This document shows, one piece after another, positions 7,555 to 53,130 of a DNA stretch of 57,409 bases. The notes beneath the pieces were generated by a model. It saw nothing but the letters and a program-made list of their open reading frames with translations. It was not told the origin of the DNA and did not search any database. The position numbers were made by a program, and so were the translations under genes. Source of the DNA: Candidatus Wildermuthbacteria bacterium RIFCSPHIGHO2_01_FULL_48_25 (GTDB lineage: Bacteria > Patescibacteriota > Minisyncoccia > Minisyncoccales > UBA10102); assembly GCA_001823155.1 (NCBI GenBank), contig MHTR01000006.1, positions 1 through 57,409 of the forward strand, read 5' to 3'. Every line of letters starts with the position of its first letter. Positions within the stretch are counted from its first letter, which is position 1.

Positions 7555-9288
7555 TCATTCCTCTGTTGCTCTCACCACTTCTTCAACAGTGGTGATGCCG
7601 TCGAGTACCTTTAAGATACCATCCTGGCGCAAAGTCGTCATCCCCTGGCGTTTCGCCTCGTCAAAGATCTTCTTCTCAGACGGGTCTTGGAGCACTATTC
7701 GTTCAAGTTCGTCTGTCATAGACAATATTTCAAACAGGGCAACGCGGTCTTTGAATCCATTGCTCCCGCACGACTTGCAGCCCCGCGCGGCAAAGATCTG
7801 AAAGTCTTTTTGCAAAATCAAGGGTTCCGCGTACTTCTTTGCATCTAAAGGAAGAGCCTCAACTTCTTTCTTGAGCATTTCGAAAACGGCCTTTGTGGGT
7901 TTTTCCTTTTCCTTGCACTCGTCGCACAGTTTTCGAATGAGGCGCTGGGCAACGGCAATGCTCAAGGTGGAAGGAATGAGGTACCTATCGATTCCCATGT
8001 CTATCAACCGCGGAATAACGCCAGTTGCGTTATTCGTGTGCAGAGTGGAAAGCACAATATGCCCGGTTAAGGCAGCATGAATAACCAAAGAAGCTGTTTC
8101 TTTGTCGCGCACCTCTCCCACCATGATGACATTGGGGTCTTGGCGCAAAATCTGGCGAAGCCCAGAAGCGAAATCATACCCAATTTCAGGCCTCACCTGC
8201 GATTGGTTGATCCCTTCAACCAGATACTCCACCGGGTCTTCAATAGAAACAATATTCACTCCTTCCTGGTTCAGGATCTGCAAAATAGCGTACAAGGTGG
8301 TGGTTTTGCCCGAACCCGTGGGACCGGTGGAAAGCACCAAACCATACGGTTTTTTGATCGCTGCTTTTACTTTTGCGAGGTTTGAGCCAGATAACCCAAG
8401 GTCTTCGAATTTCTTTAATCCTTTGGAAGGGTCTAACACGCGAATAGCCACCTTTTCTCCCAAAGCGGTGGGGAACGTGGACACGCGAAAGTCTATATTC
8501 ACCCCTTCAATGGGAGCCGAGAACCTTCCGTCTTGCGGCACCCTCGTTTCGTCAATCCTCATATTCGACAAAATCTTCACGCGAGAGAGAATCGCTTCTT
8601 GTACTTTCTTTGGCAGGAACAGGGAAGCGTGGAGCTCTCCTAAAAACCTGAACCTCACGCGTACCTGGTCTTTGGTGGGCTCAACGTGAATGTCTGAAGC
8701 GCCTCCCTCAACCGCGGTTCGCAAAATAACTGCCACCATTTTGGTAATGGGAGCTTCTTCCACAATGCGCGACAAAGCCCTGCTTTTTACCTCGCCTTCT
8801 TCGCCCAGCTTGTCATGCACTTCTTTTTGCAGAGCTTCCAGGGCTTCTGTCATCTCGCCTTTCAAGTTCCGGTACTGGCGCAGCAGAGCCTCGAAAGTGG
8901 AGAGGGAGATCAAGGAAACCGTGTAGGTGAAGTTTCCCTGTCGCGCCAAAAACTTCAAAGCGTCTTTGGCTGCCGCATCTTCGGGAGACACCATGCCGAT
9001 TTCCAAGGTTTTGTTTTGCTGGCCCAAGGGAATCATTCTGTAGTACTTTGCCGAATCCTCGGGAATGAGCTCCAAGACGCGCAAAGGGATCTCTTCAGCA
9101 GCTATCTTTTTTAAAGGAACCTTCAAAGCTTCGCTCTTCAAAGAAAAAAGCGTCTCTTCGTCAACGAGCTTTTGCGAGAGCAAAGCTTCTTCTATTGAAA
9201 CGCCAGAAGCTGCCGCGCTTGAGGCCAACTCTTTTGCCTTTGCTTGGTCAAGGATTCCTTTTTGAATGAGAAGCTGGAGTACGTCCAT
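7555..9288 (-). CDS. pilB: type IV pilus assembly ATPase PilB (GspE family)
   Basis: 577 aa. N-terminal GspE_N-like domain, Walker A GPTGSGKTT, and a CxxC...CxxC tetracysteine motif (CDECK..CKSCG). Confidence 0.92.
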   Translation of the reverse strand: MDVLQLLIQKGILDQAKAKELASSAAASGVSIEEALLSQKLVDEETLFSLKSEALKVPLKKIAAEEIPLRVLELIPEDSAKYYRMIPLGQQNKTLEIGMVSPEDAAAKDALKFLARQGNFTYTVSLISLSTFEALLRQYRNLKGEMTEALEALQKEVHDKLGEEGEVKSRALSRIVEEAPITKMVAVILRTAVEGGASDIHVEPTKDQVRVRFRFLGELHASLFLPKKVQEAILSRVKILSNMRIDETRVPQDGRFSAPIEGVNIDFRVSTFPTALGEKVAIRVLDPSKGLKKFEDLGLSGSNLAKVKAAIKKPYGLVLSTGPTGSGKTTTLYAILQILNQEGVNIVSIEDPVEYLVEGINQSQVRPEIGYDFASGLRQILRQDPNVIMVGEVRDKETASLVIHAALTGHIVLSTLHTNNATGVIPRLIDMGIDRYLIPSTLSIAVAQRLIRKLCDECKEKEKPTKAVFEMLKKEVEALPLDAKKYAEPLILQKDFQIFAARGCKSCGSNGFKDRVALFEILSMTDELERIVLQDPSEKKIFDEAKRQGMTTLRQDGILKVLDGITTVEEVVRATEE

Positions 9289-9411
9289 CCCGTTAGAAGC
9301 AGATCGCGATCAGCGCCAATCCGCAAACATTATTTATTTTCATGATCTTGTATCATTGATTTATGCATTGGACTTATCTCGTGAGCGATCGCGGCTTCTA
9401 ACGGGATCCAT
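9289..9411 (-). mobile_element. MITE-like copy C of the CCCGTTAGA element
   Basis: Sense strand: ATGGA-T-CCCGTTAGAAGC...GCTTCTAACGGG-ATGGA(CGTA = pilB start). 12-nt perfect termini with an imperfect extension (GCGATCGC blocks). Confidence 0.7.
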
Positions 9412-10728: not shown

Positions 10729-11799
10729 TTATTGAAGTCCCCGGAGCGCGGCTCCCACTGCCACCGCGTGTGAAGGGCCAAGATTCTTAAGCGTTTGCTC
10801 GAGCACAGGAGGGTAATACAAGTTTTCAAAAGGGTTGGCGATACTCGTGGGTTTTTTCACGGTTGTTTCCACATACTCTCGCAATCCAGGGAGCAAAGCG
10901 GTTCCGCCTGCCAGAATGATCTTCTCGACCTCTTTCCCTCCCTGCTGTTGGAATTCTTTTGAAACCCGCTCGAGCTCCGAAAGAAGAATGTCTACCATGG
11001 GAGAAAGGATAAGGGCAAGGTTCTTGTCTGTCATGCCTTTTTCAAACTTGTAGCGTTCCGCCATTTTGGCGTCAACAGACAGGGATTTTGCAATGCGGTC
11101 GGTCAAACTGTTTCCCGCCACGTCCACGCTGTGGGAAACCCGCAAGGTGCGCTTTGCAATAATGTTCACGGTGGTGCTCTGCGCGCCAATGTCTAGGAGC
11201 GCAAGAGAACTCTTGTCTTCCTCGTTTACGCACGAGCGCATGATACAGAACACCTCTGCTTCCAATCCCGAAAGCGTCAGCCCCGCGAGATTCGCGATTT
11301 CCTGGTACTGGTTCACGATCTCCTTGGGAACCGCCACCATCAAAATTTTCAAAGGGGTCTTTTGCTCAAAGGTTCCTTCCAAGAGCTGCCAGTCGAACGT
11401 CACCTCGGAAAGCGGAAGGGGAACGTGCCTTCTTGCTTCAAACGCCACGGCTTCTGGCAATTCCTCTTTGGTCATAGGCGGAAGCTCGAAATGCGTGAAG
11501 AAGCTGGAGAAATCGGGGAGTGAAAAAAGCGCGTCTTTAGTCTGGATTTTTGCTTCCTGCAGAATTGCCTTGAGCACCCGCGCGATATCCTGCTTTGAAA
11601 GCACCAGGGTGTTCCGCTCAAAGGTGCGGAAGGGTTTGTCGTACAATGCGGAACTCTGAAGCTCCGCGTAATTCTTCAAACTCTTCCTGCCTCCCCAGCG
11701 CTTCACCTCGGCTATCTTCACGGCAGATGTTCCAATGTCAACCCCAAGAAAACTCTTGGGCAATACTGTGAATGAACGAAAAGGTAAGGGTAGTTTCAT
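10729..11799 (-). CDS. pilM: type IV pilus assembly protein PilM (actin-like ATPase fold)
   Basis: 356 aa. LGVDIGTSAVKIAE, LLDIGAQSTTVNI and ILAGGTALLPGL motifs of the PilM/FtsA-like family. Confidence 0.85.
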   Translation of the reverse strand: MKLPLPFRSFTVLPKSFLGVDIGTSAVKIAEVKRWGGRKSLKNYAELQSSALYDKPFRTFERNTLVLSKQDIARVLKAILQEAKIQTKDALFSLPDFSSFFTHFELPPMTKEELPEAVAFEARRHVPLPLSEVTFDWQLLEGTFEQKTPLKILMVAVPKEIVNQYQEIANLAGLTLSGLEAEVFCIMRSCVNEEDKSSLALLDIGAQSTTVNIIAKRTLRVSHSVDVAGNSLTDRIAKSLSVDAKMAERYKFEKGMTDKNLALILSPMVDILLSELERVSKEFQQQGGKEVEKIILAGGTALLPGLREYVETTVKKPTSIANPFENLYYPPVLEQTLKNLGPSHAVAVGAALRGLQ

Positions 11800-11887
11800 C
11801 CCGTTAGAGATAGGAAACGCTTCGCAACGTTTCCGTCATTCGTTGGTAAACTATAAAACCTTTTGTGAAATCTCTAACGGGATTCAT
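11800..11887 (-). mobile_element. MITE-like copy D (internal-deletion derivative of copy A)
   Basis: Sense strand: ATGAA-T-CCCGTTAGAGAT...GGAAACGTTGCGAAGCGTTTCCTATCTCTAACGGG-ATGAA(ACTA = pilM start). The 24 nt next to pilM (cccgttagagataggaaacgcttc on the plus strand) are identical to the pilC-proximal end of copy A. Confidence 0.8.
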
Positions 11888-14748: not shown

Positions 14749-14848
14749 TAGGTTGAGCCTAGGTGTGGATAACTAGGCCGGGCCTAGTTTAAATAGAAGG
14801 CGCCCTTGTATGGGCGCTCTATATAATCCACACACTAGGCTCAACCTA
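14749..14848. repeat. nested palindrome (three hairpins) between convergent recG and GT2 genes; likely bidirectional terminator
   Basis: Outer arms TAGGTTGAGCCTAGGTGTGGAT (14749-14770) and ATCCACACACTAGGCTCAACCTA (14826-14848). Inner hairpin AACTAGGCCGGGCCTAGTT (14771-14789) is a covarying relative of the AACTTGGCC..GGCCAAGTT repeat. A second inner hairpin is GCGCCC-ttgtat-GGGCGC. Confidence 0.7.
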
Positions 14849-41002: not shown

Positions 41003-41046
41003 AAAACTAAACCAGGCTTAGGAATTCCTAAGCCTGGTTTAGTTTT
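41003..41046. terminator. 44-nt perfect palindrome, bidirectional terminator
   Basis: AAAACTAAACCAGGCTTAGG-AATT-CCTAAGCCTGGTTTAGTTTT lies between the convergent 3D gene and tRNA-Leu, with an A-run and a T-run on either side. Confidence 0.8.
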
Positions 41047-41505: not shown

Positions 41506-42987
41506 CTATTCTTGGATAAAGAAATGCAGTTCGTCTCCCGCCTGAACCTGCGTATCTCCTTCATATGAGATGCCGCACTCCTGGTTCTTTTCCACGGTTC
41601 CCGTGTCTTTTTTATCCCGCTGGAGGTTGAGCATCCTTCCTCTGCCCACAACCTCTCCGCCCCTCATAACCTCAATCTGCGCTCCTCTGCGCACCTCTCC
41701 GTCTGTCACCTTTCCGCCCAGGATCTGCCGGTTTTTCTCGGTAAAGAACACTGCCAGCACTTTCAATGCTCCTATTTCCTTTCGTACCGCAACCTCGGGT
41801 GCCTCGGCTTTCTCCTGGAGCGTTCGCACTGCCTGCACAAGGTCGTAAATAACTTCAAAGGTCATGATCGCTATCTTCTCGCGTTCTGCGAACTCGAGCG
41901 CCTCTTTTCCAACCTGCACGCGGAATCCCAGAATCGTTGCCTTGCTTCCCTGCGCCATTTTCACGTCACCTTCCGCGATATCTCCAACGCCAGAATGCAT
42001 AACGCGTATTGCCACCTTTTCCTGAGGAAGCGCCAAAAGCATGCCTTCCAACGCTTCCAAGCTTCCCGCGAAATCCGTTTTCACAATGAGGTTCAGAATC
42101 CTTGTTTCAGGAGAAACAACTTGGGGAGCTTTCTTTAGTTCTTCTGTTTCAACAACGCCTTTTCGCGCTTCTTCCTCACTCTCAAACACCTGGAACTCTT
42201 CTCCCACGCGGGGCGCCTGTTCAAATCCAATCACTCTGGCGGGAAAAGAAGGGGGAACAGATTCCAAGGAATTCCCCTGGAAATCTTCCAATATTTTTGC
42301 CTTTCCAACAGCGCTCTTGGTTCCAAGTACGTCTCCCTGGAAAACTGTTCCTTGGCGCACCAAAAGGGTCGCGACTCCTCCCCGCTGGCTGTCCATGGAT
42401 GACTCGATAATCACGCCAAGGCCGGGCTTTGTAGGGTCTGCCTTGAGGTTTTGCAAGTCCGCGAGAAGCACGAGCATTTCCAAGAGCTCGGGAATCCCTT
42501 GCTTGGTTGTTGCCGAAGTGCCAATAGAAGGAACATCACCTCCCATGCCCTCCACAAACACTCCTGCTCCAGAAAGATCACGCTTGGTTCGTTCCAGATC
42601 TGCTCCGGGAATGTCTATTTTGTTTATGGCAACCACGAAAGGAATCTCCGCTTTTTTAATAACGTCAATCGCTTCTTTGGTTTGGGGCTGTATACCATCA
42701 CCCGCCGCTACCACGAGAATGGCCAAATCAGCGACATCTGCACCTCTTGCCCTCAAAGCGGAAAAGGCCTCATGGCCTGGAGTATCAATAAAGGTAATGG
42801 GTTTGCCTTGGAACTGCGCAACGTATGCACCTATGTGCTGCGTTATGCCGCCTGACTCTTTTGAGGTTATCTTAAACTCTTCTCGAATTGCTTCCAAAAG
42901 AGAACTCTTGCCGTGATCCACATGGCCAAGTACTACTACGATGGGAGGTCTCGCAACCCCATTTTGTGATTTCTCTGTGTCTGCCAT
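41506..42987 (-). CDS. infB: translation initiation factor IF-2 (compact, lacks long N-terminal region)
   Basis: 493 aa. GHVDHGKSSLLEAI, DTPGHEAF and NKID G-domain motifs followed by IF2 domains. Confidence 0.92.
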   Translation of the reverse strand: MADTEKSQNGVARPPIVVVLGHVDHGKSSLLEAIREEFKITSKESGGITQHIGAYVAQFQGKPITFIDTPGHEAFSALRARGADVADLAILVVAAGDGIQPQTKEAIDVIKKAEIPFVVAINKIDIPGADLERTKRDLSGAGVFVEGMGGDVPSIGTSATTKQGIPELLEMLVLLADLQNLKADPTKPGLGVIIESSMDSQRGGVATLLVRQGTVFQGDVLGTKSAVGKAKILEDFQGNSLESVPPSFPARVIGFEQAPRVGEEFQVFESEEEARKGVVETEELKKAPQVVSPETRILNLIVKTDFAGSLEALEGMLLALPQEKVAIRVMHSGVGDIAEGDVKMAQGSKATILGFRVQVGKEALEFAEREKIAIMTFEVIYDLVQAVRTLQEKAEAPEVAVRKEIGALKVLAVFFTEKNRQILGGKVTDGEVRRGAQIEVMRGGEVVGRGRMLNLQRDKKDTGTVEKNQECGISYEGDTQVQAGDELHFFIQE

Positions 42988-42997
42988 ACTTATTCAT

Positions 42998-43081
42998 CCC
43001 GTTAGAAGTTAGCTGCTTTCATGCCTCATTACATCCTGTTAGCACCGTGCATATTTGTGGGAAACTTCTAACGGGATTCAT
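42998..43081 (-). mobile_element. MITE-like copy F of the CCCGTTAGA element
   Basis: Sense strand: ATGAAT-CCCGTTAGAAGTT...GTGCTAACAGGAT...AACTTCTAACGGG-ATGAAT-AAGT-ATG(infB). The upstream gene now ends ..HESR-TAG inside the left repeat. Removing the element restores ..CAT GAA TAA. Confidence 0.75.
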
Positions 43082-43433
43082 GAAGCGCTTTCTTAATGGC
43101 TTCTTCCTCTTCTTTGGAAAGGGCGTATTCTGATTTCCCCGCCTGCACGGGTTTGCCATACATGCGGTTGTACTCTTGCAAATAGTGTGACGTCAGCACC
43201 ACTCCATTATTGTCTTCGTCTAAGAAGGCGGCGCTGAAGCTCTGGTCACCCCCTCCTTCTCCAAAAGGATTGTAGCGGATAATGCCCACTTTGGTCACCG
43301 CCTTTTTCATGCCTTTCTTGAAGTCTGCCAACTCTTGAGAAAGCTCTTCCAGTTTCTTTTCAAGGCCTTCAAGGTGCTTTTCCACCTCCTTAGAAACGCC
43401 TTGAAACTTTTTCTTTTTTGCTTTGAAAAACAT
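43068..43433 (-). CDS. DUF4446-like protein (coiled-coil N-terminus)
   Basis: 121 aa. GIIRYNPFGE.GGDQSFS.A.LD....GVVLTS motif as I recall it for DUF4446. The last 3 codons and the stop come from element copy F. Confidence 0.55.
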   Translation of the reverse strand: MFFKAKKKKFQGVSKEVEKHLEGLEKKLEELSQELADFKKGMKKAVTKVGIIRYNPFGEGGGDQSFSAAFLDEDNNGVVLTSHYLQEYNRMYGKPVQAGKSEYALSKEEEEAIKKALHESR

Positions 43434-46881: not shown

Positions 46882-46918
46882 AACGCCCCGCCATCACTGG
46901 CGGGCGTTTTCTTTCTTT
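46882..46918. terminator. hairpin terminator between convergent genes
   Basis: AACGCCCCGCCA-tcac-TGGCGGGCGTT followed by TTCTTTCTTT. The stop codon of 46894-47415 sits in the loop. Confidence 0.65.
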
Positions 46919-47415
46919 GAGTTTTTCTTTTGTTCTCCAGCTTCCTCTGTTCCGCGCTCCAGCAGAAAAATCCTATTGTGCAATCCTTTGAGAAGAAAGT
47001 TCGTTTCGTGAGACCGTTCAATCAGCTGGTCTATCTTTTTTGAAAGGTCTTCAATATGCTTGTCTTTCGTTTCAATGACATCTTGGAGAACCGCAATCAT
47101 CTCGTCTTTGCCCTTGAGCACTTCTCCCGTTTCTTCCTTGGTCGGGCCAAGGACTTCCTTGGCCCGACCAAGGGAATCTTCTTCGGAAGCAGAAACGAAT
47201 ACTTCCTCTTCTATGGGCTCTCCCTCAAGGGCTTTGAGCAAGAATTCCTTGTTCAAAAGATACATCATGCCCTTTTCACGCTGCTCTTTTTTCATGATGC
47301 TTTCCAAGGAAATGCCCGACGTTTCCAAGGCGTCTTTTAACACGCGCATCAAGCGAACATCGCTCTCGCCCGTGAGCCGCATGGCTTCTGCTATTGAGAT
47401 AAACTCTTCATTCAT
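46894..47415 (-). CDS. HTH (MerR/excisionase-like) plus coiled-coil protein
   Basis: Start at ATG 47415 (MNEEFISIAEAMRLTGESDVRLMRVLK...); the longer track ORF runs into tRNA-His. The C-terminal half is heptad-rich. Confidence 0.5.
   Translation of the reverse strand: MNEEFISIAEAMRLTGESDVRLMRVLKDALETSGISLESIMKKEQREKGMMYLLNKEFLLKALEGEPIEEEVFVSASEEDSLGRAKEVLGPTKEETGEVLKGKDEMIAVLQDVIETKDKHIEDLSKKIDQLIERSHETNFLLKGLHNRIFLLERGTEEAGEQKKNSKKENARQ
47136..47173. repeat. double palindromic repeat inserted in frame in 46894-47415
   Basis: CCTTGGTCGGGCCAAGG-ACTT-CCTTGGCCCGACCAAGG, with the same CTTGGYCSGRCCAAG core as the pilD and tsaD repeats. Encodes ..SLGRAKEVLGPTKE.. Confidence 0.8.
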
Positions 47416-47423
47416 AACGTTTT

Positions 47424-47500
47424 TGGGGTGAGCGACGGGATTCGAACCCGCGGTCTTCGCTGCCACAGAGCGACGCTTTAGCCGCTAAGCTACGCCCACC
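47424..47500 (-). tRNA. tRNA-His(GUG) with encoded G-1 and CCA
   Basis: G-1 plus acceptor GTGGGCG/CGCTCAC, discriminator C, D stem GCTT/AAGC, anticodon stem TCGCT/AGCGA with loop CTGTGGC, 3' CCA. Confidence 0.85.
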
Positions 47501-51278: not shown

Positions 51279-51768
51279 AGGTCCGTAATGAGACGGTTTG
51301 GGAAATATCCAACTGGGCGTCTTTGAAAGAAAGGGAGATATCTACTTTCAGGGAAGGAACGTTTCCTGAAACTACTTTGGTAAACACCAGGCTGTCTATT
51401 GAAACCTCGCTCGGAGTCAAGGCCAGGGGAGAAGCGCCTTCTTTTTTCATGCAAAGCTCGCTGCCGCACAAAAAGAAGTCCACAAAAGTTTCTGTTTCCC
51501 CTTCAGGAAGATCTTTGGTGGTTTCCAAAGAGAGTTGGCCAGGAGAACTCGCGTAGAGGGAGGTTGAGTCATACACGCTTCTTGCTTCCCTTGCCTCTTT
51601 GCTCAGAAGTTCCAGGGCCTGGCTGGCAACAATGGAAAGCCGGCGCTGGGAACTCACCACAACCTGGGATTGGCTGGTCCACAGCAAAAAGGAGAACACT
51701 GCTCCTGTCACAACCGCAAGCACTGCCACATACACCAGTATTTCAACTACCGTAAATCCTTTTTTCAT
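51265..51768 (-). CDS. minor pilin/pseudopilin
   Basis: 167 aa. MKKG/FTVVEILVYVAVLAVV prepilin motif. Confidence 0.75.
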   Translation of the reverse strand: MKKGFTVVEILVYVAVLAVVTGAVFSFLLWTSQSQVVVSSQRRLSIVASQALELLSKEAREARSVYDSTSLYASSPGQLSLETTKDLPEGETETFVDFFLCGSELCMKKEGASPLALTPSEVSIDSLVFTKVVSGNVPSLKVDISLSFKDAQLDISQTVSLRTYVAP

Positions 51769-52292
51769 GGTTGTTTCCAGTTCGTAATGTACATCAAGAG
51801 CGTGACTTCTCGCGCCTCCCCCCGGTCAGACCACGAAACCCTTGCCGTGACCTTTTTGGTATCGGGGTCAACGATTCCGCCGCTCTCAACAATGTTCGAA
51901 CTGGCGTCACGGGAAACGCTCGAGAACGAAACAGACCTCGTGAAGTTTTCAACCTGCTCTTCTCCCTCAAGCAGCTGCCAGCGGGGTATTGCGTCAGCTG
52001 ACAAAAAAGGATAGTACGACGTGTCCAATAAAACCACTCCAAGCCCGTCATACTCGTTTGCTGGGTCGTCTGCGTCCCAAAAAACACCGTCTCGGTAGTT
52101 CAAGAGTGCTTCTAATGTTTCCTTGGCAAGCGCCTGGGCCCTGCCTTCCAAACTCGTATCTGCGCTCTGACGCAAAGCCAAGGTTGCCACTCCCAGAATA
52201 CTGGAAAGGGCTATTCCAACTACCGCGGTCACCACGAGTATTTCAATGACCGTTATTCCTTTTTTGCTATTGAAGGGAAGGAGATGAGACAT
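51765..52292 (-). CDS. minor pilin/pseudopilin
   Basis: ..NSKKG/ITVIEILVVTAVVGIAL prepilin motif. Start is ambiguous (ATG 52292 or 52316). Confidence 0.7.
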   Translation of the reverse strand: MSHLLPFNSKKGITVIEILVVTAVVGIALSSILGVATLALRQSADTSLEGRAQALAKETLEALLNYRDGVFWDADDPANEYDGLGVVLLDTSYYPFLSADAIPRWQLLEGEEQVENFTRSVSFSSVSRDASSNIVESGGIVDPDTKKVTARVSWSDRGEAREVTLLMYITNWKQP

Positions 52293-53130
52293 AGAGTGAT
52301 GTGCCAGCGGCAGCAACTCCGCTGTCGTTGTATTGGATAAGGTCTCCGGTGGTGTCTCCGCTTAAGGTCAAACTGAAACCCTTGGTATTAACCCTGCTGT
52401 CGCGGTGAACGGAAAACTGGGTGTTGTTCGTGGCATCATTCAAGTAATGTGTTTGGATTTTGAGTTTCTGCGTCTCTCCGCCCACGCTCACACTCTCTTC
52501 CCAGGAAAGCGCGTTTCCCTGAACATACGTATTGAGAATAGTGGTTTTGACAACCGGAGAGCCGGAGTTGGGGAACGTTAACGTCATAGTTTCGCTCTCG
52601 GTATCAATAATTCTGGCGTAATCAACGTGAACGTGTCTTGCGTCTTTAATTCGTTCCTCGTCTGAAGGAGTTCCTGGAGCAATTTGAGTAATGTCACCAT
52701 TCGCGTTGACGTACAACTGCAGTTCTTGCGCGCTCGCTTTTTCGCGCAGCACAACACTTCCTTCACTCACGGGAAACCCGGTGAGTTTTTCGAATACCGC
52801 TTCGTTGCTTTCAAGGCTAATCGTAGAAAACTCAAGCGAAGAAGAAAGCGTTTCTGTTTTGTCAAACGCGGGATCTCGTGTTGCAAACGCGCTTCCCTTA
52901 AACAGCGTGTAGCTTTGGATTGCGAATGAAACCCCCCAAGAACTCTCGCCCTTGGAAGCAACGGTGCTGGTCTTTGCTTCTTCCAACACTGCCAGCACTT
53001 TTTCAGCAGCTCCTTCGAGACCCTTCTCTCTTTCAAAGAACCGCAACGCGGGCAAGCTCAACAAAAGGATGCTGCCCAGGATCCCTATAACCACCAGTAT
53101 TTCAATGAAGGTGAGCCCTTTTTGTCGCAT
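52267..53130 (-). CDS. minor pilin/pseudopilin (GspH/FimT-like size)
   Basis: 287 aa. MRQKG/LTFIEILVVIGILGS prepilin motif. Confidence 0.75.
   Translation of the reverse strand: MRQKGLTFIEILVVIGILGSILLLSLPALRFFEREKGLEGAAEKVLAVLEEAKTSTVASKGESSWGVSFAIQSYTLFKGSAFATRDPAFDKTETLSSSLEFSTISLESNEAVFEKLTGFPVSEGSVVLREKASAQELQLYVNANGDITQIAPGTPSDEERIKDARHVHVDYARIIDTESETMTLTFPNSGSPVVKTTILNTYVQGNALSWEESVSVGGETQKLKIQTHYLNDATNNTQFSVHRDSRVNTKGFSLTLSGDTTGDLIQYNDSGVAAAGTSLYVSSPSLQ

Follow-up and report, generated by a model that had tools for sequence, protein, structure and literature searches.

Bacterial MITEs such as the Correia elements of Neisseria are about 80 nt long, lack ORFs, carry terminal inverted repeats and a target duplication, and occur in many copies at gene boundaries; Correia-type MITEs form co-transcribed hairpins and are able to alter gene ends. 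MITEs of the Correia/Stowaway type duplicate TA and originate from elements with a DDE transposase. In the REP/REPIN-RAYT and IS200/IS605 systems, hairpin repeats are tied to one small nuclease gene, itself flanked by repeats, and the nuclease is of the HUH (Y1) type. IS200/IS605 elements insert 3' of a fixed tetra- or pentanucleotide and make no target duplication. GIY-YIG homing endonucleases, both free-standing and intron-encoded (I-TevI, the Seg proteins), are spreading selfish genes whose ORFs are often translationally linked to host genes; in homing, recombination copies them into a single cognate allele, and neither inverted repeats nor duplications are involved. The enzymes have added DNA-binding domains. 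Rickettsia palindromic elements (RPE) are mobile palindromes within or at the ends of coding genes, where they change the protein; they lie in frame and are translated as internal segments. The GIY-YIG fold also occurs in Slx1, a eukaryotic nuclease that cuts branched and hairpin DNA, works in repair and needs Slx4. The UPF0213/COG2827 proteins (BH0048, EF2693) are labelled hypothetical proteins, and we know of no function or mobile context assigned to them. GIY-YIG enzymes are hydrolytic nucleases for which, to our knowledge, no strand-transfer or ligation chemistry has been described, and the known members leave short 3' overhangs, not 4-nt staggers.

The locus compared here lies in a stretch of 57,409 nt from Candidatus Wildermuthbacteria bacterium RIFCSPHIGHO2_01_FULL_48_25 (the window), which holds six copies (A-F) of an inverted-repeat element. 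Copy F, at the junction of a DUF4446 gene with infB, is very probably a short derivative of this element that lacks an ORF and inserted recently; the full-length form of the element carries a single gene for a GIY-YIG nuclease of about 90 aa.

Copy F at the DUF4446-infB junction

The DUF4446 gene (43068..43433, minus strand; ORF 43433..43068, 121 aa) is identified by a Pfam match (E 8e-33) that ends at residue 116 of 121. A first-pass annotation had described its end as ..AAA GCG CTT CAT GAA TCC CGT TAG, with the stop inside a repeat, and both points can be read directly in the sequence: the TAG (43070-43068) falls within CCCGTTAGA (43075-43067, minus strand). In the sense of the genes, the junction runs ..TCC CGT TAG AAGTTT..(element)..AACTTCTAACGGG ATGAAT AAGT ATG GCA GAC. 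Copy F occupies 80 nt (42997..43076, minus strand) between two TGAA duplications and consists of the core CCCGTTAGA..TCTAACGGG (42998-43075, minus strand) plus one paired end base on each side. The upstream arm, TCCCGTTAGAAGTTT in gene sense (43062..43076), is complementary at 15 of 15 positions to the downstream arm, ..AACTTCTAACGGGA (42997..43011; both minus strand). The arms form a perfect 15-bp inverted repeat, and as RNA the region folds into a 15-bp stem of -33.8 kcal/mol (z = -3.3). The upstream TGAA (43077..43080, minus strand) comprises the last base of His118 and the codon of Glu119, and the downstream TGAA lies at 42993..42996 on the same strand. The span 42992-43081 extends from one ATGAAT to the other, and this hexamer had been taken as the duplicated unit. 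It fits the window, but the four-bp model derived from 157 copies is better, the flanking T and A being the paired end bases of the element. The repeat at the end of DUF4446 is real and not a chance match. CCCGTTAGA has 12 exact occurrences in the 57 kb, arranged as six convergent pairs, where about 0.4 would be expected for a 9-mer on both strands; allowing up to one mismatch raises the number to 19, compared with a mean of 8.9 in shuffled sequences, and 0 of 100 shuffles reach it.

Related genomes hold the junction without the repeat. The closest DUF4446 homologue among 5.8 billion proteins (P0003, 84% identity) ends ..EEEEAIKKALHE, and another, P0006 (70% identity to the DUF4446 protein), ends ..AIAKALHE. 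The junction reads ..GCGCTTCATGAA TAG CT ATGGCAGAA in the contig of P0003 and ..GCGCTTCATGAA TAA AT ATGGCAGAT in that of P0006; the repeat is absent from both, and in both the ORF after DUF4446 is infB (MAETKTAQSGVARPPIVVVLGH.. and MADTKQEKSSGVPRPP..). Without copy F and one duplication, the window would read ..GCGCTTCATGAA TAA GT ATGGCAGAC, the same architecture as in the two orthologous loci (L001, L002). The first-pass annotation had set the ancestral ending ..KKALHE-stop followed by infB beforehand as its test, and this is what P0003 and P0006, with their ..ALHE ends and repeat-free junctions, display; its reconstruction of ..CTT CAT GAA TAA GT ATG by deletion of the element and one repeat copy was likewise reproduced. 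The window is closer to L001 (84% in DUF4446, 92% in the infB N-terminus) than either is to L002, so that one insertion in the lineage of the window is the parsimonious reading. Copy F recurs unchanged in eight contigs of this species that come from different samples, GCA_001825005.1 among them; it is therefore fixed and not an assembly artefact.

Direct repeats around a hairpin favour precise deletion, and empty sites are exactly what excision leaves; the element might accordingly have been ancestral at this junction and lost from the orthologues. This is very unlikely. It takes two losses instead of one gain, as one of the lineages that lack the element is closer and one is further, and the perfect arms and duplication argue for a young insertion. 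More distant DUF4446 proteins, moreover, terminate at most a few residues away from ..KKA, and HESR is the ending of none of those inspected. A native regulatory RNA in the leader of infB, serving as an attenuator or a processing site, to which a stable stem just ahead of an essential translation gene would be suited, has next to no probability: the same arms occur at five unrelated genes of the window and at least 120 loci elsewhere, and they are missing from the orthologous junctions. In an Rfam search of the window only tRNAs reached the gathering score, and a permissive threshold returned nothing credible at copy F. Scanning the F region for promoter and terminator consensus sequences found no site within the element, so that an outward promoter or terminator role is also unsupported.

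The insertion point lies between Glu119 and the old TAA, and therefore no ancestral residue was lost. Since it precedes the old stop, the frame enters the upstream arm and reads TCC CGT TAG (43068..43076, minus strand), an element-supplied tail of Ser120, Arg121 and stop. An insertion with a new C-terminus and stop had been proposed, correctly as to the added Ser-Arg and TAG; it had been placed in the last codons, whereas the site is between the last sense codon and the stop. The target ATGAAT is indeed not a start codon, its ATG being out of frame within caT GAA. The ancestral TAA is now orphaned (42990..42992, minus strand) and is followed by GT and the ATG of infB (short IF-2, 493 aa, 41506..42987, minus strand), which formerly started 2 nt past the DUF4446 stop and now starts 80 nt past it. 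The infB AUG is 9 nt from the last base of copy F, an A (42997), rather than the 7 nt first given; it is 10 nt from the ..CGGG of the core and 4 nt from the end of ATGAAT.

A Shine-Dalgarno-like motif precedes 8 of the 54 predicted genes, several of which have crudely called starts, and none precedes infB in the window or its relatives. As the motif is rare and lacking at infB, no ribosome-binding site was displaced by copy F, and this, together with a tail outside the DUF4446 domain, may be why the insertion is tolerated. The gene starts of the window suggest that initiation in this genome is largely Shine-Dalgarno-independent or coupled. The last base of copy F also rebuilds an ATG that opens a 41-codon ORF (42872..42997, minus strand), out of frame with infB and overlapping its start. 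Because the equivalent ATG is the gene start at the other five copies, that at 42997 may well be used, and the ORF could be harmful. Both sides of the element carry stops in two of the three frames (on the upstream arm TGA in the duplication and TAG in CCCGTTAGA; on the downstream arm TAA in TCTAACGGG and TGA in the duplication), so a gene that runs into the element is terminated immediately in those frames. The TAG of the arm terminates seven ORFs of at least 100 codons, that of copy F and others in other genomes, and 17 further ORFs of at least 100 codons end in or beside the duplication.

Other copies in the window and the full-length form

Copies A-D are situated in a type IV pilus operon, on the minus strand. 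Copy A (5751..6030), the full-length form of 280 nt, lies between pilT and pilC and has a GIY-YIG gene as its sole ORF. Copy B (7470..7548) is at the start codon of a response regulator, copy C (9288..9406) at that of pilB, with the duplication TGGA, and copy D (11799..11882) at that of pilM. Copy E (17693..17772, plus strand) precedes a 701-aa ORF (17772-19877), at its start codon, and has a 5-bp duplication, TGGAA. The five short copies measure 79-119 nt. Copy D shares with copy A 24 nt of the end and some internal blocks and aligns as an internal-deletion derivative of an A-like element. At copies A-E, the RTG abutting the element is the start of the host gene. The terminal A or G of the element and the duplicated TG rebuild ATG or GTG, which accounts for the GTG start of pilC in the window as opposed to ATG in the relatives.

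Four contigs (L256-L259), whose protein homologues are named Candidatus Wildermuthbacteria, carry the same pilus operon without copies A-D. They provide empty sites for copy A (L256, L258), copy B (L256-L259), copy C (L258, L259) and copy D (L257-L259), with the junctions ..CTAC|ATGAAACT, ..TTCG|ATGAAGTT, ..AACC|ATGGATCT and ..AAGT|ATGAAAAT, which match the pre-insertion sequences predicted at start codons. The empty site reads ..GATATACTAC|ATGAAACTACC at pilM, ..CCTTATTCG|ATGAAGTTTAAT where the pilT stop overlaps the pilC start, ..TTTTAACC|ATGGATCTC at pilB and ..GAAGAAGT|ATGAAAATA at the response regulator. Copies A-D and F, five of the six in total, are thus verified insertions.

L257, which lacks copies A-D, has a GIY-YIG gene of the same Pfam family (364-618) about 180 nt upstream of pilM; its position differs from that of copy D, and the pilus operon may therefore be struck repeatedly. 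Copies B, E and F contain a third, internal arm-like motif (7500-7515, 17726-17734 and 43036-43046), GCTAACGGGAT or, in copy F, GCTAACAGGAT, which can pair with the upstream arm to give two alternative hairpins.

The ORF of copy A (5748..6035, minus strand, 95 aa) draws both its start and its stop from the insertion site: the ATG is made of a host A and the duplicated TG and overlaps the pilT stop, and the stop codon, which is the duplicated TGA itself, overlaps the rebuilt GTG of pilC. The product consists of MNPVRDSSST and an 85-aa GIY-YIG domain (PF01541, 63.6 bits vs. a cut-off of 22.6, E 2e-17). Homologues number 4869, and nearly all of those inspected start with MNPVRD and end with RFLSLTG, meaning that both arms are the coding termini of the GIY-YIG ORF. 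The conserved residues of the GIY-YIG motifs (Tyr of GIY, Tyr-x-Gly of YIG, Arg, Glu) are present, Y15, Y25-T26-G27, R33/R35, H39 and E59 being invariant in 31 homologues. In a structure model (pLDDT 85.6) the first ten residues are disordered, and the best PDB matches are UPF0213 (1zg2) and Slx1 (7cq2/6seh). On this model, the copy A protein is a predicted GIY-YIG-fold nuclease with UPF0213 and Slx1 as nearest relatives; a search of NCBIfam gave a group I intron endonuclease match alone, below threshold. Metagenomes supplied 29 intact full-length copies; 21 of them have their stop at the duplicated TGA, 23 border an ORF of at least 60 codons, and TGAA accounts for 13 of their 18 exact duplications. 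The stop of the full-length ORF overlaps the rebuilt host start (ATGA or GTGA), and no gene other than the GIY-YIG ORF lies between such arms in any locus examined.

The window holds other repeats as well. A second, unrelated family consists of doublet palindromes, for example AAACTTGGCCCGGCCAAGTTTG/CAAACTTGGCCGGGCCAAGTTT (17003-17048, 17232-17272, 2607-2650, 14749-14848, 41003-41046 and 47136-47173). Two of them are read in frame (SNLARPSLLKLGRAKF; PKLRLGRGPKRSLG) in a tsaD-like ORF (16503-17675), and further ones fall within two other ORFs (2137-2907, 46894-47466); the family resembles the Rickettsia RPE in looking like palindromes inserted in frame. Diverged tandem paralogues (3249-4519, 22302-23065, 51731-53123) appear as direct repeats of 130-260 nt spaced about 500-580 nt apart. 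Pilin-like genes beside the pilus operon are among them, and relatives have N_methyl proteins at the corresponding place. Many genes of the window overlap by ATGA.

Ends, target duplication and choice of site

Across the family, the ends conform to YCCCGTTAGA..TCTAACGGGR. A scan of one genome per species returned at least 120 loci; among the 80 matches listed with titles, roughly 47 have Patescibacteria names and roughly 27 have other names (Planctomycetota, Delta- and Gammaproteobacteria, Omnitrophota, Nitrospirae and others). Of 157 copies compared, 92% have a complementary base (C..G or T..A) adjoining the core, and the duplication is modelled best as the 4 bp immediately outside this paired end base, exact in 49%; the outer two bases match in 77 of the 87 copies in which the inner two do. 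Duplications of 5 or 6 bp (ATGAA, ATGAAT) or 2 bp, tried on the same copies, also fit the window and were rejected as worse than 4 bp plus the end base. The consensus is TNNA (TGAA 26, TAAA 20, TTGA 8, TGGA 8).

The paired end positions typically number 13 (131 copies). Arm positions 10-12 covary, with 92, 89 and 72% Watson-Crick pairs of several types, and the window itself has the variants GAAACT..AGTTTC in B and E and GAAGTT..AACTTC in F. Positions that vary and yet stay paired point either to selection for pairing or to ends copied from one another. A full-length partner with arms like those of B, E and F (CCCGTTAGAA..) was not found within the 57-kb window. Among the loci outside Patescibacteria (L018, L040, L064, L106, L111 and others), complementarity in contigs of Planctomycetota and Deltaproteobacteria runs past the core (for example GGGGCTTCAC|core|GTGAACCCCT), and GTTTAC or GTGAAC flanks are common rather than ATGAA. 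These copies may represent a distinct, longer-armed subfamily or mis-binned contigs.

The association with start codons has two possible sources. There are 273 ATGRA sites in the window. Leaving aside those already occupied, 13-22 coincide with starts, about 19 lie at other tolerable positions and 214 fall within genes. Start sites and tolerable sites away from starts are thus roughly equal in number, and five of six copies at starts is unremarkable (P about 0.16). The census is compatible with the earlier proposal that the association comes from sequence preference plus selection; the excess at start codons would then reflect this preference and the loss of insertions within genes. Recognition of ATGRA as such, which had also been proposed, fits the data in part. 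At L058, L069 and L095, as at copy F, the element sits at ATGAA sites that are not starts and have A before TGAA, but the wider family accepts TNNA. Roughly half of the copies in other genomes are at non-start sites, for example GTTTAC, so that the ATGRA preference is not general.

The element could instead sense start sites as such, for example via translation-initiation regions, with copy F an accident at a look-alike site. We regard this as unlikely, even though five of the six window copies are at start codons, 23 of the 29 full-length copies abut a long ORF and the base preceding the 40 TGNN duplications is always A (35), G (4) or T (1) and never C (0). Preference and selection suffice for the first of these figures, copy F and its three counterparts occupy non-start ATGAA sites, and half of the family is at TTTA, TTGA or TAAA sites. 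The orientation of the copies is also regular: the short copies B, E and F have one common polarity relative to the gene, and an internal ..CTAACRGG motif is forward in four and reverse in none of the oriented copies. These sequences hint that orientation is set by the mechanism.

Mobilisation and comparison with described systems

In the mechanism proposed here, the GIY-YIG protein would be the enzyme that mobilises full-length and short copies, the latter in trans. It would recognise the paired arms, probably as a hairpin or cruciform, and cut TNNA, preferring A|TGRA, with a 4-nt stagger; the ends might be joined through ligation of the matching overhangs by the host, through repair synthesis or by another route. 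The full-length form would gain an extra benefit from borrowed host translation signals. On this proposal, a bare GIY-YIG nuclease of about 90 residues, UPF0213/Slx1-like, would be the sole protein of an undescribed class of prokaryotic DNA transposon and the smallest transposase-like enzyme known. Its ORF would obtain start and stop from the 4-bp duplication made where a start codon has the form A|TGAA, use the initiation site of the host gene for its translation and return the ribosomes via an ATGA overlap; in a family with thousands of copies in Patescibacteria and others in several further phyla, copy F would be a non-autonomous member. We advance this tentatively, at slightly less than even chances. 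An exact 4-bp duplication is found in only half of the copies, and that of copy E is 5 bp, which argues against the GIY-YIG protein as mobiliser. The hydrolytic chemistry and short 3' overhangs of the known GIY-YIG enzymes, the lack of a general ATGRA preference and the absence from the window of a full-length partner for B, E and F count against it as well.

The short copies, copy F included, might instead be moved by a conventional transposase encoded elsewhere, with the GIY-YIG gene as a passenger or as a riding homing-type nuclease. We know of no GIY-YIG nuclease that transposes DNA, a 4-bp duplication with palindromic TNNA is typical of dimeric DDE enzymes, and 57 kb of the genome are in view. 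Full-length elements, however, hold the GIY-YIG ORF and nothing else, as is true between such arms at every locus examined; the arms double as GIY-YIG coding termini and are kept in thousands of homologues, and copy D derives by deletion from an A-like copy. A conventional transposase is accordingly improbable, and mobilisation by the GIY-YIG protein remains our working proposal. Termination-reinitiation fits the full-length form but was rejected as a general rule for the short copies: the upstream frame opened by the left ATG stops 4-11 nt short of the host start in B and D but about 70 nt short of it in C and E.

Copy F is a clean, dated case of a mobile repeat changing a protein C-terminus, and it separates the essential infB from the stop codon that it once abutted. 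With empty sites for five copies, the insertion model is, for an uncultured organism, unusually secure. Borrowed starts and stops, together with the stops of the arms, show how an element can occupy start codons in packed operons without killing genes. For annotation pipelines, wrong starts and small ORFs are to be expected at every copy. If the GIY-YIG protein does move the elements, it would add a fourth nuclease fold to the transposase repertoire and explain why Patescibacteria genomes hold such a large and so far puzzling number of small "GIY-YIG nuclease family proteins".

The open-access full-text literature yielded no description of a GIY-YIG-encoding inverted-repeat element or of the repeat, although a prior description is possible. 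A 2006 survey of GIY-YIG proteins does not mention UPF0213, COG2827, YhbQ or "inverted repeat", and the few passages in which transposases appear refer to other clusters. GIY-YIG ORFs have been reported in non-intron insertions in rRNA genes of Patescibacteria (PMC11270868). These insertions could belong to the same element family.

In every mark that can be read from sequence the element behaves like a MITE: the short copies are small, non-coding and multicopy, with terminal inverted repeats, a duplication confirmed against empty sites (F, A-D) and a longer coding element, copy A, that shares their ends. They thereby resemble Correia elements, but the duplication is 4 bp (TNNA/TGAA) rather than TA, the sole related coding element carries a GIY-YIG nuclease, and the ends rebuild start codons. 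A MITE of the Tc1/mariner-IS630 type was rejected, since the duplication is not TA but 4-bp TNNA, most commonly TGAA. As in REP/REPIN-RAYT and IS200/IS605, the hairpin repeats go with one small nuclease gene, and the covarying arms suggest that structure is recognised. A relative of these systems was nevertheless rejected: the nuclease is GIY-YIG and no HUH gene lies between the arms, and there is a 4-bp duplication, verified at empty sites. With homing endonucleases the element shares the selfish GIY-YIG gene and its translational link to host genes. The element protein, however, is a bare domain of about 85 aa, with UPF0213/COG2827 and the Slx1 domain as nearest relatives in sequence and fold. 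The copies lie at unrelated gene starts (pilC, response regulator, pilB, pilM, 701-aa ORF) and at the DUF4446 end, and all of those in the window have arms and duplications, so a homing endonuclease gene was also rejected. Like RPE, copy F alters a protein, but it adds two residues only, because its arm carries a stop codon. As a single event copy F is thus of an ordinary, well-documented kind, whereas the family to which it belongs looks new.
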